Source: an uncultured Alphaproteobacteria bacterium (GTDB lineage: Bacteria > Pseudomonadota > Alphaproteobacteria > Rhizobiales > Xanthobacteraceae). Taken from it: DNA of 64,000 nt. The DNA is taken from positions 131,141 to 195,140 of the forward strand of contig CAVSZM010000006.1 in NCBI GenBank assembly GCA_963732455.1, read 5' to 3'. How positions within the stretch are numbered: the first letter of the stretch is position 1; each line of letters starts with the position of its first letter. The notes below the pieces were generated by a model that did not search any database, was not told the DNA's origin, and saw only the letters and a program-made list of their open reading frames with translations. Of this stretch, positions 7,322 through 33,487 are shown in pieces. The translations under genes were made by a program, and so were the position numbers.

Positions 7322-8735
7322 TCACACTCTTTTATAATCATCCTCGATGCGGATGATGTCGTCTTCGCCCAGATAGCTCCCGGTCTGGACTTCGATCAGC
7401 TCCAGCAGAATTTTGCCGGGGTTTTCTAGCCGGTGGACCGAGCCGATGGGAATATAGATCGATTCGTTCTCGTGCACGATCTTGACGAGTTCGTTGACGG
7501 TCACGCGCGCGGTTCCCCGCACCACGATCCAATGCTCGGAGCGATGGTGGTGTTTCTGGAGCGAGAGACGTCCCCCCGGTTTTACCACGATACGTTTGAC
7601 CTGGTGACGATCGCCATTGTCGACCGATTGATACGAGCCCCAGGGGCGATGCACCTTGAGATGATCCTCGGTCACCTGGGGTGCCACGGTCTTCAGCTTG
7701 GCGACCAGCCGCTTCAATCCGTCGGCGTCCTTCTGGCGTGACACCAGAACGGCGTCTTGTGTCGCCACCACCACGAGATCGTCGACGCCTTCCAGCGCGA
7801 CCAGCGCCCTGTCGGTCGAAACGTTGCAGTTGCGGGAATCCTCGAACACCGCAGCGCCCTGCGCGGCATTGCCCTGGCTGTCCTTGTCAGACAGTTCCCA
7901 CACCGCATGCCAGGAGCCGACGTCGGACCAGCCGCACGCAACGGGTACGACCGCGGTGCGCGAGGTCTTTTCCATGACCGCATAGTCGATGGAGATCGCC
8001 TTCGCCGATCCGAATGCACCTGTCTCCAGCGTGATAAACCCGAGATCCCGCCCCGCTCTGGGTCACCGAATCAGTGACGGCCTGCACGCTTTCCGCATCG
8101 ACGTTGCGGTATTCATCGAGCAGGACGGATGCGCGAAACATGAAGTTGCCGCTGTTCCAGAGATAACCGGCCTTGATATATCCGGCGGCCGTTACCGGAT
8201 CCGGCTTCTCGACGAATTTCGTGACTGCACGGACCTCGCCGGAAATGACTTCGCCCGGATTGATATAGCCGTATTCTGTGGCCGCACGTTCGGGCTGAAC
8301 ACCGAAGGTCACGATGCGGCCGGCGTCGGCAGCGATGAGACCCTGACGACAGGCGGCGACAAATGCGTCTGTATCGCGGACGACGTGATCGGCGGCGAGC
8401 GCTAGAACTATCGCATCTTGGTCTCGCATCTGCGCAAAGGCCGCGCCCGCCGCGATCGCAGGGCCGGAGTCCCTCCGCATCGGTTCCAGCAGGACATCGG
8501 CCTCAAGCCCGATCTCGGCAAGCTGCTCGAGCACCATGAACCGGTACGCCGTGTTGGTGATAACGACCGGACGTTCGAACAGCGTCGCATCCGACACTCG
8601 CAGAATCGTGTTCTGAAATGTCGATCGAACCCCGAACAAAGGCAAGAATTGTTTCGGATGGACCTCGCGCGAGGCCGGCCACAGCCGCGTTCCGGCGCCG
8701 CCGCACATGATCAGTGGAATGATACGTTTGCTCAT
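7322..8735 (-). pseudogene. manC: Mannose-1-phosphate guanylyltransferase/mannose-6-phosphate isomerase, split by a +1 frameshift at ~8060-8062
   Basis: N-term IMCGGAGTRLWPASR and EP..RDSGPA, C-term WSDVGSW plus cupin RPWG...LSLQKHHHRSEHW. Removing one base of a G3 run restores ...SVTRAGRDLGFITLETGAFGSAKAISIDYAVMEKT. Real lesion or assembly error. Confidence 0.85.
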
Positions 8736-25138: not shown

Positions 25139-26602
25139 TCACGAATACTGCATTACCCCGTCATCGACCTTGCCGAAGCGCAAGCTGACGATGTCGAGCG
25201 CGTAGTTCTGATAGAGCCGCCACGGCCGCTTCGAGCCCTGCTTTGGCATTTTCGCGACCGCGCGCTGTACGTAACCGGACGAGAAATCCAGCGACGGCAA
25301 TTCAGCGATGGTAGGATCGATATTGTGCGGCATGCATTGCTTGTAGCCATGCCGATCCATGTAATTGACCAGGCGGCAGACATATTCGCAGGTCAGATCG
25401 CATTTCAGCGTCCACGACGCATTGGTATAGCCGAATGAAGATGCCAGATTGGGCACATCCGAATACATCATGCCCTTGTAGTTCAGCGTCCTGGCGAAAT
25501 CGACCGCGCGGCCGTCGACACTGACCTCCATGCCGCCGAGCACCTGCAGAACGAGACCGGTGGCGGTGACGATGATGTCGGCTTCGAGCTCGCTGCCATC
25601 CTTCAGTTTGATGCCGTTTTTCGTGAAGCTGTCGATCTCGCTGGTCACGACGGAAGCGCGCTTTTCCCTGATGGCGTTGAACAGATCGCCATCGGGAACC
25701 AGGCATAACCGCTGATCCCAGGGATTGTAGCGCGGCGTAAAGTGGGTGGCGATGTCGTAGTCGGGACCGAGCGCCATTTTGACGCCGCCGAGGATCAGTT
25801 CCTTTACACGCGCGGGCTTGCGCCGGCTGAGCTGAAAGAAATACATCCCCCACAACACGTTGCGCCAGCGGATCAAATGATAGGCGAGCTTGGCCGGCAG
25901 ATTGCGGCGCAGTTTGTTGGCCAGCGCGTCCTGCGCCGGCCGCGACACCACATACGTAGGCGAGCGCTGCAGCATGGTGACATGCGCTGCCGTCTTGGCC
26001 ATCTCCGGCACCAGCGTTACCGCCGTCGCGCCCGAGCCGATCACCACCACGCGCTTGCCGGCGTAATCGATGTCGTCGGTCCATTTCTGCGGATGCACGA
26101 TGCGGCCGGCGAAGTCTCCGACGCCGGAAAATTCCGGCGTGTAGCCAGCCTCGTATTTGTAATAGCCCGAGCACATGAACAGGAAATTGCAGGTGAAGCG
26201 CACGGTCTCCGAAGCCCCTTCGCGCTGCGGTCCGAGTTCCGCCTCCACGGTCCAGCGTGCGTCCTGCGTCGACCACGATGCCCGCCTGACCCGATGGTTG
26301 AAGCGAATTTTCTTGTCGATGCCGTTATCGGCGGCGGTCTCGCACACGTAGTTCAGAATCCGCGGCCCGTCGGCAATCGCCTTCGGCTCGGTCCATGGCT
26401 TGAACGAATAGCCAAGCGTGAACATGTCACTGTCGGAGCGAACGCCGGGATAGCGGAACAAATCCCAGGTACCACCGATGCAGTCGCGACCCTCGAGGAT
26501 GGCGTAGCTCTTTCCGGGACACTTGTGCTGCAGGTGATAACCAGCGCCAATGCCGGACAACCCGGCGCCGACAATCAACACGTCGAAATGTTCTGGTGGC
26601 AT
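25139..26602 (-). CDS. EthA-like FAD/NAD(P)H flavin monooxygenase (class B)
   Basis: VGAGLSG, GGTWDLFRYPGVRSDSD, FAGRIVHPQKW, IGSGATA, PRYNPWDQRLC. Confidence 0.9.
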   Translation of the reverse strand: MPPEHFDVLIVGAGLSGIGAGYHLQHKCPGKSYAILEGRDCIGGTWDLFRYPGVRSDSDMFTLGYSFKPWTEPKAIADGPRILNYVCETAADNGIDKKIRFNHRVRRASWSTQDARWTVEAELGPQREGASETVRFTCNFLFMCSGYYKYEAGYTPEFSGVGDFAGRIVHPQKWTDDIDYAGKRVVVIGSGATAVTLVPEMAKTAAHVTMLQRSPTYVVSRPAQDALANKLRRNLPAKLAYHLIRWRNVLWGMYFFQLSRRKPARVKELILGGVKMALGPDYDIATHFTPRYNPWDQRLCLVPDGDLFNAIREKRASVVTSEIDSFTKNGIKLKDGSELEADIIVTATGLVLQVLGGMEVSVDGRAVDFARTLNYKGMMYSDVPNLASSFGYTNASWTLKCDLTCEYVCRLVNYMDRHGYKQCMPHNIDPTIAELPSLDFSSGYVQRAVAKMPKQGSKRPWRLYQNYALDIVSLRFGKVDDGVMQYS

Positions 26603-26678
26603 GGTGGTCTCCGAGGCGGAATTCCGAAAGCGTTGATTGCAGTAGGTTAGCCAGCAAGCCGCAGAAAAATGCAACTGG

Positions 26679-26790
26679 CGAGACGCGGCGGGCGCGCCTC
26701 CTCATGGTTCGAGACGTCGCAAACGCGTTTCCTCACCATGAGGGTATCATCCTCATCCGGGTCTGCGCCACGACGCATCCCGGAATAATC
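26679..26790. repeat. Palindromic intergenic repeat(s) (CCTCATGGT...ACCATGAGG plus a CCGGG...CCCGGAAT remnant)
   Basis: Inverted repeat at 26700-26708 / 26735-26743 with TTCGAGACG core, between convergent-free ends of ahcY (stop) and the monooxygenase promoter. Confidence 0.6.
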
Positions 26791-26801
26791 GCGTCGGATC
26801 A

Positions 26802-28232
26802 TCAATACCTGTAATGATCCGGCTTGAACGGGCCCTGCTCCGACACGCCGATATATTCGGCCTGATCAGGCCGCAGTTGCGTCAGCTTCACGCCGATCTT
26901 GGCAAGATGCAGCCGCGCCACCTTCTCATCCAGCGATTTCGGCAGCACATAGACCTTCTTGTCGTATTTGCCGTTCTTGTTGTTGGCGAACAGCTCGATC
27001 TGCGCCAGCGCCTGGTTGGTGAAGGATGCCGACATCACGAAGGACGGATGGCCCATGGCGTTGCCGAGGTTGACCAGGCGGCCCTCCGACAGCAGGATGA
27101 TGCGGTGCTTGTCGGGGAATTCGATCTCGTCGACCTGCGGCTTGATGTTGGTCCATTTCAGATTGCGCAGACCCGCGATCTGGATCTCGTTGTCGAAATG
27201 GCCGATGTTGCAGACGATGGCACGGTCCTTCATGGCGCGCATGTGCTCGATGGTGATGATATCCTTGTTGCCGGTGGCGGTGACGAAGATGTCGGCACGC
27301 GGCGCGGCGTCTTCCATGGTGACGACTTCATAGCCTTCCATCGCGGCCTGCCACGCGCAGATCGGATCGACCTCGGACACCATGACGCGGCAGCCGGCCT
27401 GGCGCAGCGATGCGGCAGAACCCTTGCCGACGTCGCCGAAGCCCGCGACCATCGCGACCTTGCCGGACATCATCACGTCGGTGCCGCGGCGGATGCCGTC
27501 GACCAGCGATTCGCGGCAGCCATAGAGATTGTCGAACTTCGACTTGGTGACGCTGTCGTTGACGTTGATCGCCGGAAACAGCAGCTTGCCTTCCTTCTCC
27601 ATATTGTAGAGCCGGTGCACGCCCGTCGTGGTTTCTTCCGAGACGCCCTTGATGTTCTTCGCAATCCCGGCGAACCAGCCTTTGGGTTTCTCTTTCAGAA
27701 GGCGCTTGATCAGCGCGAAGAAAACTTCCTCTTCCTCGCTATTGTGCTGGTCCAGAAAGACAGCGTCGCCGTTCTCGGCACGGAGACCGTGATGCACCAG
27801 CATGGTGGCGTCGCCACCGTCATCGAGGATCATGTTGGGCGTGCCGCCGCCGTGCCAGTCGAACAGTTTTGCGGTGTAGTCCCAGTATTCGGTGAGGCTT
27901 TCGCCCTTTACCGCGAACACGGGAATGCCGGCCGCCGCGATCGCGGCCGCGGCGTGGTCCTGCGTCGAATAGATGTTGCAGGAGACCCAGCGGATATCGG
28001 CGCCGAGCGCCGCCAGCGTCTCGATCAGGACCGCGGTCTGGATCGTCATGTGCAGGGAACCGGCGATGCGCGCGCCCTTCAGGGGTTGTTTGGGGCCGTA
28101 TTCCTCACGCGTCGCCATCAGGCCTGGCATCTCGGTTTCGGCCAGCGAGATTTCCTTGCGGCCAAATTCAGCGAGCGAGATGTCCTTGACGATGTAATCG
28201 GTGAAGGCGGGCTTCTTGGCGGTGGCGGTCAT
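26802..28232 (-). CDS. ahcY: S-adenosyl-L-homocysteine hydrolase
   Basis: [49 protein letters not shown]. Confidence 0.98.
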
Positions 28233-28255
28233 ATGAGGGTCCTGTTCCTGTGCAT

Positions 28256-28386
28256 GTCATTTCGAGGCGCGAGGGTTGCGACAGAATTTGACGGATTTTA
28301 CGTCAATTTTGCGCTGAAGGGGCGAGCCCGGAAATTCGGAAATTCGAGATTCCGGTCCATGCCTTGCAGCACATCCCGGAAATGAC
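28256..28386. repeat. REP-like palindromic element (GTCATT...AATGAC family) between metK and ahcY
   Basis: Ends GTCATTTCG / CCGGAAATGAC and internal CCCGGAAT..GAGATTCC segment shared with the 62304-62404 copy. Carries an extra TTGACG..CGTCAA hairpin. Confidence 0.65.
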
Positions 28387-28395
28387 GTCGCGTGA

Positions 28396-29595
<1,200 letters not shown>

Positions 29596-29649
29596 CCAAC
29601 CCCTTTTCCGCCTGACCTCGGCGGTCCTTTCGAAATGTGTCCTGAAATG

Positions 29650-31006
29650 TCAGTCGCGACGGCGCGAAATGACGTAGGATTCGTCGTAAAACCAGAGCCC
29701 GTTATGTTTGCGCAGAACCTCTCTGGCGGCATCGAGATAACGGCCACTTTGGGTCATTTCCGTCAACCGGTCGTCTTCGATCTGGGCGACATACACCGCC
29801 GCATTCCATGCTGCAAAGGCCGTCGAGGTTCCGATCGAGCCGGTGACCTCATTTGGCAGCGCTTCCATATCATAGCGGAAGATCGAGCGGTTATCGGCAT
29901 AGGCATTAAAGTTAAGATCGCGCCCGGCCGATCCCAGCTCGTATTTCACCGCGCGCAATAGCTCATGACGGCTCACGGCGAAAGGGTTTTCTCCGGGCCA
30001 GACCGCCTGGATAATCTCGATGCCGGGATCCTGCCCGTGGGAGTGAATTCCGATCAATCGGCCCCCCGCCCGCAACGCCCGCGCCAGCGGCGCAATAATG
30101 CGTTTGGCGCGAAAATTGACCGAGGATTTGGCCCGGTAGGGCTGCGAAGCGATGATCAGGTCGAAATTGGCCTCGGAACGGCCGGCACGCGGGATGATCG
30201 AATCAAGCAGGAAACGGTGGTCCTCCCGGTACAGCACGATCGCGACCGGCCGCTCATAGACCGGCATGCCCGAACGAGGGCTGACGTTGGCCCGCCAGTT
30301 CTGCTCCAGAAATGGACCGAGTTCGGCGATCTGGGCCTCGAATTCGCCCGAAGAAGCCCCCCGCAACGCTACCTCGTGCCAGATCATGCCTGCGGCCGCC
30401 GCGGGCGATGCCGGAGTAAGCCAAGGCGCTTCGGCGTAGTACATGTTGGTGAGGACAAAAACGGTAGCGGGGTGTTCGAACAACCGGTCCGGCACCTTGG
30501 CCAAGGTCAGCCGGACGTCCTCCAGGCTGAGTTCCTTCCCGGCGATGTAGAACGGCATATGAGGAAAGCGCCCATGCATCGAGCGCATGACTCGCGCCAG
30601 CACGGTGCCGTCGCCCACGCCGGCATCGAATACCCGCAGCGCCGGCGGCCGGGGGTGGATACTGCCGAGTTCCAGCGCCACCCGCTCCGCGATGACCCGC
30701 TTTTCGCTGCAGGTATGTACGAACAGCAGGTATTTCTGGCGATTCTCGAAAAACCGGAAGTTGCCACGGGGATCGCGCTTCTCGGGCAAGACTTCAAGGC
30801 CACGCGGTGGCGCTACCCCGCCCGGCGTCGAGGCGGCGATATAGGCCTGGATGCGGTCGAGGGTGTCGATGGTGATGCGCTTGCCCTCGCGCAGCCGGTG
30901 TACCAGCTTGCCGTCGTTCACGGCGCGGCGGCCAAAGGTCGAACTCGGCCATATCGGCCTGACGGCAGAAGTCGGAAATCTGGCTCAGGATTTGGTCGTT
31001 TTTCAT
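29650..31006 (-). CDS. HTH plus class I SAM-methyltransferase-fold fusion protein; +1 frameshift at ~30942
   Basis: ORF 30794-31090 gives MKNDQILSQISDFCRQADMAE. Deleting one T joins it to STFGRRAVNDGKLVHRLREGKRITIDTLDRI of ORF 29650-30921. Downstream motifs DAGVGDG, GKE, FDLIIASQPY, LRAGGRL. Confidence 0.72.
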
Positions 31007-31203
31007 GGAGACAGGCAGGTGGGCAGCGGCGGATGGGACGTTTGTCTTACCATCATCTGCCCACCCCTGGGAATGCAGCGGATGGTACACTCCCGGTGAG
31101 GGATGCCGCCGCTCCCAGATGCTGATGTGTGCGCGCCGAAGTCGTCGCGACGATCGGAAACGAGCAGGTGCCCGCGATCGTACACGTCAATGCTCGGCGA
31201 GGT

Positions 31204-32355
31204 CTATCTGACGGAGAAGCCGTGATGAGCCGCGATGTAGCCTCTCGCACTGTCTGCAATGCACTGCGCTTCCAGTCCAATCTCGCGCAATTGTCCCGTC
31301 GGTGAAGTGATCTGACCGCAGAAATATAGCCCAGGCGCGTTTGTCGCCCGGCCTGTCAAAAGCGGCATGCCATGCTTGTCGAATATACCTTCCACATCGG
31401 GCAATAATTGGCGCAGGTCGGGGCGGAAGCCGGTCGCAAGAATAATCGCATCGAATTTTTCGCTTCTGCCCTCGGCGAATACGACACCGTCCGATGTAAG
31501 GCGATCGATACCGCCGTAAATCTTGATCGAGCCGTCCCTGATTTTGTCCAGCGTCCCGATGTCGATCAACGGCACACGTCCGTCCTCTTCGACCATTTGC
31601 CGCGGTCCTTTGGAAGCGCGGCGCAATCCCAATTCCTCGATTGAACCGAGGGCCAGCCGCAGGATCGGAGCGTTGATTAGATCGACGAGGCGCGCGGGCA
31701 GGCGCCGGTACAAGATAGCCCATGCCAAAATCGGAAAGCCCAGGAGGTCGCGCGGCAGAATCTGAACCGGGCCGCGGACGGCAAGACCAACATCAACTTT
31801 GGCGTTGGCCAGATCCAAAGCGATCTCCCCGCCCGAATTGCCGAATCCGACGACCAGCACGCGCTTTCCGACATACGGCGTCGGATTGCGATATTCGCTG
31901 CTGTGGATGACACGGCCTCGATGTAGTTCCGAGCCCGGCCAGGAAGGACGATATGGCGCATCGGCTATGCCCGTTGCCACGACCACAACAGGCGCAGAAA
32001 TCAAGTCCTGGGCTGCATCCGCGCGCCATTGCGTGCCGTCGCGCCTGATGGACCGTACCGTCGCATTGAAAACAGGTTTGATATTGAAACGTTCGGTGTA
32101 GCTTTCCAGGTATTCGACCACCTGCTCGCGAGATGGATAGGTCGGATATATCGGCGGCATCGCCATGCCGGGCAGACCGGAATGGTTGCGATCCGTGTGG
32201 AGGTGAAGCCGATCATAGTGACGTCGCCAAACCGAACCAACGGTTTCGGCTTTCTCCAGGACGGTAACGTTGAGACCCGCCGCGCGCATCGTCATGGCGC
32301 ATGCCAGCCCGGCCGGGCCTGCACCTACGATGATGGCGTCGGGATTTCCTGTCAT
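31204..32355 (-). CDS. Flavin-containing monooxygenase, YUCCA/FMO-like
   Basis: GAGPAGL, WRRHYDRLHLH, YPSREQVVEYLESY, VATG, GRVIHSSEY, GFGNSGGEIALDL, DAIILATGF. Confidence 0.85.
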   Translation of the reverse strand: MTGNPDAIIVGAGPAGLACAMTMRAAGLNVTVLEKAETVGSVWRRHYDRLHLHTDRNHSGLPGMAMPPIYPTYPSREQVVEYLESYTERFNIKPVFNATVRSIRRDGTQWRADAAQDLISAPVVVVATGIADAPYRPSWPGSELHRGRVIHSSEYRNPTPYVGKRVLVVGFGNSGGEIALDLANAKVDVGLAVRGPVQILPRDLLGFPILAWAILYRRLPARLVDLINAPILRLALGSIEELGLRRASKGPRQMVEEDGRVPLIDIGTLDKIRDGSIKIYGGIDRLTSDGVVFAEGRSEKFDAIILATGFRPDLRQLLPDVEGIFDKHGMPLLTGRATNAPGLYFCGQITSPTGQLREIGLEAQCIADSARGYIAAHHGFSVR

Positions 32356-32368
32356 GCCGGCCTGTAAA

Positions 32369-33487
32369 TCACTTCCCCCACACCTCGTTTGCCACTTCGA
32401 CCGCGAGCCTCAGTTTGGCCCACTGCTCTTCCTCGGTGAGGATGTTGCCCTCTTCGGTCGAGGCGAAGCCGCATTGCGGCGATACCGCGAGCTGATCGAG
32501 CGGCGCGTATTTGCCTGCCTCTTCCAGCCGTCGCTTGATGTCGTCCTTCTTTTCCAGCTCACCGCTCTTCGAGGTGATGACGCCGACGACCACGATCTTC
32601 TTGCCCTTCGGCAAATACCGCAGCGGCTCGAAGCCGCCGGCGCGCTCGGAATCGTATTCGAGGAAATAGCCGTCGTAGTTGGTGCCGGCCAGCATGGTCT
32701 CCGCCACCGGCTCGTAGCCGCCGGACGAGATCCAGGTGGAGCGGAAATTGCCGCGGCAGACATGCGTGGTGATCGTCATGTCGGCAGGCCGCTCCGCTAT
32801 CGCGTAGTTGATTACGCGGGCGTAAATCTCCTGCAGATTATCGGCGTCCTCGCCGCGCGCGCGCACCTTGTTGAGTTCATCCTGCGAACAGAGATAGGCC
32901 CATACCGTATCGTCAAGTTGCAGATAGCGGCAGCCGGCATCGTAGAACGCTCTCACCGCCTTGCGATAGGTTTTCGCAATATCCTCAAAGAACAGCTCGA
33001 TATCGGGATAAACCTGCTTCGAGATCGACTTGCGGCCGCCGCGGAAATGCAGCACCGCGGGCGATGGGATTGTCATCTTCGGCATTACATGCGCGGTCTC
33101 GCATTGCTTTTTAAGAAACCTGAAATGCGCCAGCATCGGATGATCGTCGGGAAAGTCGAGCTTGCCGATCACGCGCACCGCGTCATGCCGGGTCTGGATG
33201 CCCGCGAACTGGATGCCCTCGTCGGGGTGGAACAGTTCGCATCCTGTCAACTTGGCGAGAAAATCGAAATGCCACCATGAGCGGCGGAATTCGCCGTCGG
33301 TCGCGAGCTTGAGGCCGATCGAGGCCTGCTTGTGCACGATCTTTTCGATCTCCATGTCCTCGACCTTGCGCAGATCGTCGGCCGAAATTTCACCCTTCTC
33401 CAGTTTGGCGCGCGCCTCCTTGATGCGCGGCGGCCGCAACAGACTGCCGACCTCGTCGGCGCGGAAAGGGGCTTTGGATCTCTGCAT
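32369..33487 (-). CDS. Cobalamin-independent methionine synthase II family, catalytic-domain-only (core MetE-like)
   Basis: ADEVGSLLRP, DGEFRR, Zn ligands HVCRGN, LEYD and SPQCGFAS. Lacks the N-terminal folate-binding barrel of full MetE. Confidence 0.88.
   Translation of the reverse strand: MQRSKAPFRADEVGSLLRPPRIKEARAKLEKGEISADDLRKVEDMEIEKIVHKQASIGLKLATDGEFRRSWWHFDFLAKLTGCELFHPDEGIQFAGIQTRHDAVRVIGKLDFPDDHPMLAHFRFLKKQCETAHVMPKMTIPSPAVLHFRGGRKSISKQVYPDIELFFEDIAKTYRKAVRAFYDAGCRYLQLDDTVWAYLCSQDELNKVRARGEDADNLQEIYARVINYAIAERPADMTITTHVCRGNFRSTWISSGGYEPVAETMLAGTNYDGYFLEYDSERAGGFEPLRYLPKGKKIVVVGVITSKSGELEKKDDIKRRLEEAGKYAPLDQLAVSPQCGFASTEEGNILTEEEQWAKLRLAVEVANEVWGK

Follow-up and report, generated by a model that had tools for sequence, protein, structure and literature searches.

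The question raised by the locus described here is what kind of protein heads a run of genes for the synthesis and turnover of S-adenosylmethionine (SAM), and whether that protein governs the genes behind it or chiefly itself. Within a 64,000-nucleotide stretch of DNA from an uncultured alphaproteobacterium of the Xanthobacteraceae (contig CAVSZM010000006.1; the whole stretch is referred to as the window), a gene at 29650-31006 on the minus strand precedes metK and ahcY, which encode SAM synthetase and S-adenosylhomocysteine (SAH) hydrolase. In the original prediction, made from the sequence alone, its product was described as a fusion of a helix-turn-helix (HTH) module and a SAM-methyltransferase domain, acting either as an equivalent of the SahR regulator for metK and ahcY or as an amino-methyltransferase. 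The analysis leads to another answer, to which we give about an even chance: the protein would be a one-component regulator that acts on its own gene within a methyl-cycle module and probably takes SAM or SAH as its ligand.

The known systems of this kind in Proteobacteria are SahR and SamR, which join an ArsR-family HTH to a SAM-methyltransferase-like domain, respond to SAH and control metK, ahcY, metF and metH (Novichkov et al. 2014, Leyn et al. 2014, PMC4239095). In the Bradyrhizobiaceae, no MetJ, MetR, SahR or SamR was found, and the sole methionine riboswitch found there, SAM_alpha (SAM-II), controls metX-metW and not metK or ahcY (Leyn et al. 2014). The protein family considered in this article bears on how the SAM cycle is controlled in the Bradyrhizobiaceae.

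The predicted span of 29650-31006 corresponds to a real gene but not to a single open reading frame in the window. The main frame on the minus strand runs without interruption from 30984 to a TGA stop at 29650-29652 and contains all the motifs that had been quoted for it (STFGRRAVNDGKLVHRLREG...TLDRI, FDAGVGDG, YIAGKEL, FDLIIASQPY and LRAGGRL); the position ahead of metK and ahcY likewise stands, with a gap to metK of 54-57 nucleotides. The ATG at 31006 opens MKNDQILSQISDFCRQADMAE in a different frame, the window reading ...MAE-F-DLWPP in one frame and STFGRR... in the other, while homologues of 447-455 residues start with MKNDQILSQISDFCRQADMAE(S/T)TFGRRAVNDGK and read through without a break. 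One surplus base at 30942/30943, which reads as T in the minus-strand sequence GAG-TT-CG, splits the frame. Contigs of four metagenome runs from three studies, which show 0 or 1 other difference from the window, lack exactly this base, indicating that the frameshift is either an error of assembly or a change peculiar to this one assembly. With the two frames joined against 451-residue homologues (96% identity), the gene is treated here as intact, with a deduced product of 451 residues. A homopolymer error of long-read sequencing probably accounts for the surplus base, and similar indels may therefore occur in other genes of the assembly. Two metagenome contigs, L140 and L141, carry split versions of the gene (104/113 residues plus 356 residues) that were considered as real fissions and rejected, as they resemble the frameshift artefact of the window.

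The whole protein was modelled with AlphaFold2 from an 18-sequence alignment (predicted local distance difference test, pLDDT, 85.8; predicted template modelling score, pTM, 0.76). Residues 1-60 (30825-31006, minus strand) are modelled as a Cro/C1 (XRE)-like HTH with four helices spanning residues 3-59, and the pLDDT for this head alone is 84.5. Its PDB neighbours in Foldseek are HipB, C.Esp1396I and SinR, with template modelling (TM) scores of 0.55-0.71 and a root-mean-square deviation (RMSD) of about 2 A, whereas in BFVD uncharacterised phage proteins come first (TM 0.75-0.80, 24-26% identity), followed by Cro/CI repressors. Over all comparisons with Cro/C1 (XRE) structures, TM scores range over 0.55-0.80 and RMSD over 1.6-2.4 A, with E-values of 0.016-2.7 that are not significant. 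Additionally, the head matches the phage family phrog_7669, of unknown function (E 6e-9 to 6e-5), and none of the Pfam HTH models HTH_3, HTH_26 and HTH_31 matches it at threshold. The idea that the N-terminal module is an HTH is supported by its model, by its best structural neighbours and by the phage family match. A disordered linker at approximately residues 61-87 (30745-30824, minus strand; pLDDT <50 at residues 63-87), differing in length and sequence among homologues, joins the head to the rest of the protein.

The remainder, residues 88-451 (29653-30744, minus strand), is modelled with pLDDT >90 over most of its length as a Rossmann-type fold with insertions, that is, a class-I SAM-methyltransferase-fold domain, in agreement with the original prediction. 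It contains motif I (FDAGVGDG, 30607-30630), an acidic residue after beta2 (in GKE) and a beta4 segment, FDLIIASQPY (30136-30165). A Foldseek search of this body against PDB gave 61 matches at E<=1e-3, and all 50 of the 50 listed are class-I methyltransferases, the best being histamine N-methyltransferase (HNMT, E 1.4e-7), followed by TmtA/GtmA, OxaG, JHAMT and fatty-acid O-methyltransferases. FDAGVGDG and GKE are kept in most members of the family and are degenerate in P0141 and P0147; the glycine loop is lost in two divergent HTH-bearing members, which retain the other invariant residues. The existence of HTH-bearing members without a glycine loop is easier to reconcile with a sensor than with an obligate enzyme, and it hints that the conserved pocket could hold a ligand other than SAM.

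The evidence that carries the proposed self-regulation lies upstream of the gene. Comparison of orthologue loci, 80 of which span Bradyrhizobium, Rhodopseudomonas, Afipia, Tardiphaga and Nitrobacter, revealed a putative operator at 31019-31064 on the minus strand, an inverted repeat composed of GTGGGCAG (31057-31064) and CTGCCCAC (31019-31026) in the layout GTGGGCAG-N30-CTGCCCAC, approximately 45 nucleotides ahead of the start codon. Both arms are invariant in 74 of 79 loci and their flanks vary freely; between the arms lies a -10-like box, TGGTAAGAC (31044-31052), whose TGnTA never varies. The general form of this box, TG(C/G)TAGGAC, resembles the alphaproteobacterial -10 consensus GCTANAWC. 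Further GCCCA(A/C) repeats occur downstream of the inverted repeat. The bracketing of the -10-like box by the two arms fits autorepression, and comparison of the loci alone thus places a candidate inverted-repeat operator at the regulated promoter, as would be expected for a Cro/C1 (XRE) domain.

The alternative that the repeat acts as an RNA element, such as a riboswitch, is ruled out by the absence of covariation and of any Rfam match. RNAalifold predicted only 7 arm pairs in the repeat, all of them invariant, with 0 compensatory changes, and one-sided changes break pairs; Rfam gave no match at gathering score over the window and nothing relevant at E<=10 over 28200-31250. Invariant arms and uncompensated one-sided changes together indicate that the repeat is read as DNA by a sequence-specific protein rather than formed as an RNA helix.

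The motif also accompanies the head across the family. Within approximately 270 nucleotides upstream of distant HTH-bearing homologues there are 2-7 copies of TGGGCA/TGCCCA or TGGGA(A/T)/(A/T)TCCCA, against a background rate for these half-sites of 0.16 per 270 nucleotides, whereas eight HTH-less homologues have essentially zero copies. In these upstream sequences the motif is therefore confined to HTH-bearing homologues. Furthermore, the type of half-site follows residue 34, at the start of helix 3, NDGK-L occurring with TGGGCA and NDGK-F with TGGGA.

The inverted repeat occurs nowhere else in the window, the other copies of the 7-mer being unrelated single sites at 991 and 18073. It is not found near metK or ahcY but only upstream of the gene and of its paralogue, the upstream regions of metF and metH not being covered, as these two genes were not located in this genome. 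Genome-wide, the hexamer inverted pair is not enriched (14 occurrences against 9 and 19 in controls), and pairs of the 7-mer number 9 against 0 in the control. Three close direct-repeat pairs of the 7-mer (TGCCCAC/GTGGGCA, 16-20 nucleotides apart) were recorded in the genome (G000) at C7:120426-120452, C11:163527-163549 and C15:50888-50912, which may be further targets or chance occurrences. One 7-mer pair lies near a divergently transcribed pair of genes for an ATP-binding cassette (ABC) binding protein and a dehydrogenase, and one lies approximately 450 nucleotides upstream of a gene resembling a pyrroloquinoline quinone (PQQ)-dependent alcohol or methanol dehydrogenase.

The family to which the protein belongs comprises at least 7,910 proteins at E<=1e-3, which form 1,994 clusters at 50% identity and are named in their source annotations as 'hypothetical protein' or 'SAM-dependent methyltransferase'. 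It is present in 38 of 401 sampled alphaproteobacterial genomes (approximately 10%) and in 32 of 308 genera. Two architectures occur, with and without the HTH head, the headless homologues being widespread and found in unrelated gene contexts. Searches of Pfam, NCBIfam and PDB, the last by single sequence and by profile, yielded no significant match, and a literature search by locus tag and keyword found nothing on the family, so that the architecture is without a paper, a Pfam entry or an NCBIfam entry.

The linkage of the gene to methyl-group metabolism is robust and extends beyond one lineage. The gene lies approximately 60 nucleotides ahead of metK in 79 of the 80 orthologue loci, with ahcY following metK in 72. 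Its orthologue in B. diazoefficiens USDA 110 is bll5946. At 20 distant loci, a gene for methylenetetrahydrofolate reductase (MTHFR) or an MTHFR-like protein adjoins the family gene in 7, often overlapping the stop codon; a gene for core-type methionine synthase (MetE-core) is present in 2, a GCV_T folate enzyme in 1, and metK 3-4 kilobases away in 2. The original prediction had proposed a neighbourhood survey for SAM-cycle linkage, and homologues are indeed repeatedly found beside MTHFR-like, GCV_T, MetE-core or metK genes. In addition to these 20 loci, the metagenome contigs mentioned above (L140:4001-8315 and L141:4001-8342) show the order family gene, MTHFR, GCV_T and Meth_synt_2, and genes for protocatechuate 3,4- or 4,5-dioxygenase precede the family gene. 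This arrangement, which we take to resemble the Sphingobium ligM-metF context, in which the demethylation of methoxy-aromatics yields methyl-tetrahydrofolate (methyl-THF), suggests a methoxy-aromatic demethylation and methyl-THF module.

The genome of the window itself holds an intact paralogue of 468 residues with 62% identity (G000:C20:207096-208454, minus strand, equal to L004:9091-10497), which carries the upstream repeat GTGGGCA-N15-TGCCCAC. A divergent MTHFR-like gene (L004:8122-9033; TIGR00676, E 3.5e-6, and no Pfam match at E<=0.001) begins 57 nucleotides after it. A small class-I methyltransferase gene was observed next to this MTHFR-like gene, on the opposite strand.

Taken as a regulator, the protein would operate as follows. 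The Cro/C1-like head would bind GTGGGCAG-N30-CTGCCCAC across its own -10 region, and binding there would presumably repress, rather than activate, its own synthesis; the gene body has a low level of RNA, which autorepression would lead one to expect. Through the flexible linker, the head would be joined to a methyltransferase-fold body acting as the ligand sensor, for which SAM or SAH is the most likely ligand and another methyl-cycle metabolite a further candidate. The intact state of motif I and of the acidic residue that follows beta2 makes SAM or SAH the economical guess, and the domain may or may not still transfer methyl groups. The promoter of the gene would also set the level of co-transcribed genes, including, in most lineages, a translationally coupled MTHFR-like gene. 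In the window, at most a low level of read-through would be expected to enter metK, the main promoter of which appears to lie in the 3' end of the gene.

Several observations weigh against such a regulator. The body carries the invariant polar residues R89, E101, H144, E177, H178, N187, R260, D262 and Y405 and is 84-98% identical across genera, about equal to the conservation of MetK, and these features speak for an enzyme more than for a sensor; moreover, stand-alone bodies without an HTH exist. There is no operator near metK or ahcY, metK has an RNA start of its own, and the surplus 7-mer pairs elsewhere in the genome (C7:120426, C11:163527 and C15:50888) are not at methionine genes. The Foldseek E-values of the head are not significant, as is expected at 65 residues, and Pfam HTH_26 matches it at E 0.049, below threshold. 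The match between half-site and helix 3 may reflect only two clades and thus one evolutionary event, and the repeat could be bound by another factor.

The strongest rival, which we consider possible though on the unlikely side, is that the protein is an enzyme and a repressor at once, an active small-molecule (N-, S- or O-) methyltransferase working on SAM, the head of which would repress the gene encoding it, as PutA, BirA and HTH-bearing restriction-modification methyltransferases do, with DNA binding tuned by the substrate or by occupancy with SAM or SAH. This explanation draws on the same MetK-like conservation, many invariant polar residues and widespread headless homologues in unrelated contexts, together with the intact motif I, the acidic residue after beta2 and structural neighbours that are real small-molecule methyltransferases. 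It sits less well with the two HTH-bearing representatives in which the glycine loop is degenerate and the other invariant residues are kept, and the gene context yields no candidate substrate, the neighbours producing or consuming not a methyl acceptor but methyl-THF, SAM or SAH. A related and unlikely possibility is a bifunctional governor of the methyl pool, a SAM-consuming methyltransferase whose Cro-like head would respond to SAM/SAH turnover at its own operator, thereby coupling a SAM sink, the methyl-THF supply through the MTHFR-like partner and its own dosage; in logic, by analogy, it might be viewed as a bacterial counterpart of glycine N-methyltransferase as a SAM buffer.

The principal reading of the original prediction, an equivalent of SahR, would make the protein the replacement of SahR in the Bradyrhizobiaceae, a master regulator sensing SAM or SAH and acting directly on metK, ahcY and further methionine genes. 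This reading, now improbable, had appeal in the shared domain logic of an HTH and a methyltransferase-like sensor, in the strict synteny of the gene with metK and ahcY, and in the absence of SahR, which was not found in the genome of the window, in agreement with the report for the Bradyrhizobiaceae (Leyn et al. 2014). The distribution of SahR speaks differently on a wider scale. SahR-like proteins (an ArsR HTH plus a methyltransferase domain, 313-342 residues) are present in 196 of the 401 genomes, including 28 of the 38 that bear the family and 10 of the 13 with its HTH form, indicating that the two are not alternatives; phyletic complementarity with SahR was accordingly rejected. No specific relationship to SahR is apparent at the level of sequence, as BLASTP against SahR-like proteins gave no significant match and hhalign against a SahR-like profile gave 38% probability over 41 generic columns in the beta4-beta5 stretch.

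Control of metK by the upstream gene is further opposed by the operator, which is placed upstream of the gene and is absent from the gene-metK and metK-ahcY spacers and the rest of the window, by the other genomic motif pairs, none of them at methionine genes, and by the transcripts over metK. Soil and freshwater metatranscriptome contigs covering metK end inside the gene, at 29782 (two runs, two strains), 29802, 29803 and 29809, and four metatranscriptome runs assembled nothing over 29812-31300. In one metatranscriptome run the depth is 19.9 downstream of approximately 29800 and 3.8 upstream, a step of about 5-fold, and a complementary DNA run of a cultured relative shows the same step (approximately 35 against 4-8). 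Runs labelled 'RNA?' (X46, X55-57) had uniform coverage that included intergenic DNA and were treated as DNA and left out. A simple promoter and terminator scan found no sigma-70 consensus match over 26400-31400. A candidate internal promoter, TTGCAG (29811-29816)-N17-TATGTC (29788-29793), falls within the 3' part of the gene, in the minus-strand region 29782-29816. There, the codons for F-A-A...V-Y-V are TTT GCA GCn ... GTG TAT GTC in nearly all of the 79 metK-linked orthologues, rare A/T-ending codons in the conserved TTT GCA ... TAT GTC spelling TTGCAG-N17-TATGTC, whereas 16 homologues unlinked to metK have TTC or CTG instead and a mixture of TAC and TAT. On the strength of the RNA boundaries and of this conservation at synonymous sites, the main metK promoter very likely resides in the 3' coding sequence of the gene ahead of it, with a metK leader of approximately 190-215 nucleotides from the RNA 5' boundary at 29782-29809. 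Such an embedded promoter alone would lock the gene and metK together and can account for the rigid synteny. The simple account of a SahR replacement is therefore probably wrong.

The possibility that the head does not bind DNA, the repeat being the site of another regulator or a promoter feature and the protein an uncharacterised enzyme, is highly improbable; the lack of significant Foldseek E-values and of a Pfam HTH model at threshold would suit it, but nearly all of the top 50 structural neighbours of the head are Cro/CI/XRE DNA-binding domains, and the motif occurs only upstream of HTH-bearing homologues, with its type following the helix-3 residue. Almost no weight can be given to the other proposal of the original prediction, in which an orphan or restriction-modification-like enzyme would methylate amino groups in DNA or RNA and share its expression with the genes of its SAM supply, for although some DNA methyltransferases bear an autoregulatory HTH and SQPY loosely resembles the (D/N/S)PP(Y/F) of motif IV, the sequence here is SQPY where DNA and RNA amino-methyltransferases have (D/N/S)PP(Y/F/W), its IASQPY aligns with the non-catalytic beta4 segment FHQVLHF of SahR-type domains, the listed structural neighbours are small-molecule enzymes that include no DNA amino-methyltransferase and a single RNA methyltransferase (RlmA, rank 42), no restriction gene or target-recognition domain is present, and the gene context is metabolic.

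The neighbouring genes in the window share the orientation of the gene. metK (28396-29592, minus strand), starting at 29592 with ATG or at 29595 with TTG, was assigned by the N, M and C domains of Pfam S-AdoMet_synt, and ahcY (26802-28232, minus strand) by Pfam AdoHcyase (E 3e-148). Upstream of the gene lie an ArsO-like flavin monooxygenase (31204-32355, minus strand) and a core-MetE-type methionine synthase of 372 residues (32369-33487, minus strand; NF005085, 681 bits); a MetE-core gene lies within the flanks of 59 of the 80 orthologue loci and the monooxygenase in 9 of them. In approximately 12 orthologue loci (L012, L014, L017, L020-L022, L029, L030, L037, L038, L042 and L058, at approximately 7415-8680), the metK slot is occupied by another type of MetK, about 60% identical and approximately 420 residues long, with the upstream gene and ahcY unmoved, which suggests that metK was replaced in situ.

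The spacers also have features of their own. The gene-metK spacer contains no operator copy but only a small hairpin, CCGCC-loop-GGCGG (29608-29624, minus strand), just 5' of the metK ribosome-binding site. As judged by eye, its stem is kept across genera by apparent compensatory changes (CCGCCG/CGGCGG, ACGTCG/CGACG and GGCCG/CGGCC); it has no match in Rfam and could be an mRNA stabiliser, a processing site or a small regulatory element. The metK-ahcY spacer (28233-28395 in the window, and in relatives) is hypervariable, with palindromic units resembling repetitive extragenic palindromic (REP) elements, CGTCATTCCGGG...CCCGGAATGACG and CTCTCCCCGCxxGCGGGGAGAGG, and in some species it holds a classic terminator.

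The outcome is a domain model, a concrete candidate operator with two specificity variants and a set of recurrent partners (MTHFR-like, GCV_T, MetE-core and metK), which together make the protein a candidate new regulator of the methyl cycle or of one-carbon (C1) metabolism that is now directly testable. Its place among known systems can be described by comparison with four groups. Enzyme-repressor fusions such as PutA, BirA, NadR and M.SsoII likewise combine an enzyme fold with a DNA-binding module that regulates their own gene, but the family has no homology to PutA, BirA, NadR or HTH-bearing methyltransferases such as M.SsoII. With the small-molecule class-I methyltransferases (HNMT 1jqd, TmtA/GtmA, OxaG and JHAMT), the body shares the Rossmann fold, motif I and an active-site cap (Foldseek E 1e-7 to 1e-5), and it differs from them in its large insertions and C-terminal extension, at 9-12% identity and TM 0.4-0.6. 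The Cro/C1 (XRE) one-component regulators with enzyme-like sensor domains and the phage Cro, CI and controller (C) proteins have in common with the family an inverted repeat straddling the -10 region, and the modelled head resembles theirs in fold at E-values short of significance; the head of the family remains below the Pfam HTH thresholds and is fused to a methyltransferase fold.

The closest comparison is with SahR and SamR, which had already established the pairing of an HTH with a methyltransferase-like sensor in the vicinity of methyl-cycle genes. Both systems have a DNA-binding head, putative in the family, and a class-I methyltransferase-fold domain, neighbours from the SAM cycle or methyl-folate metabolism, and a palindromic site at their own promoter. 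The head is Cro/C1-like here, without a Pfam match, and an ArsR winged helix (PF01022/PF12840) in SahR; the body is approximately 365 residues long with large insertions, compared with approximately 220 residues; and the putative operator is GTGGGCAG-N30-CTGCCCAC, compared with a 20-bp palindrome. Additionally, there are no sites at metK or ahcY here, and the family shares most of its genomes with SahR. The family is thus new in departing from SahR and SamR in HTH class, body and putative operator alike, with a regulon that is probably local rather than global.

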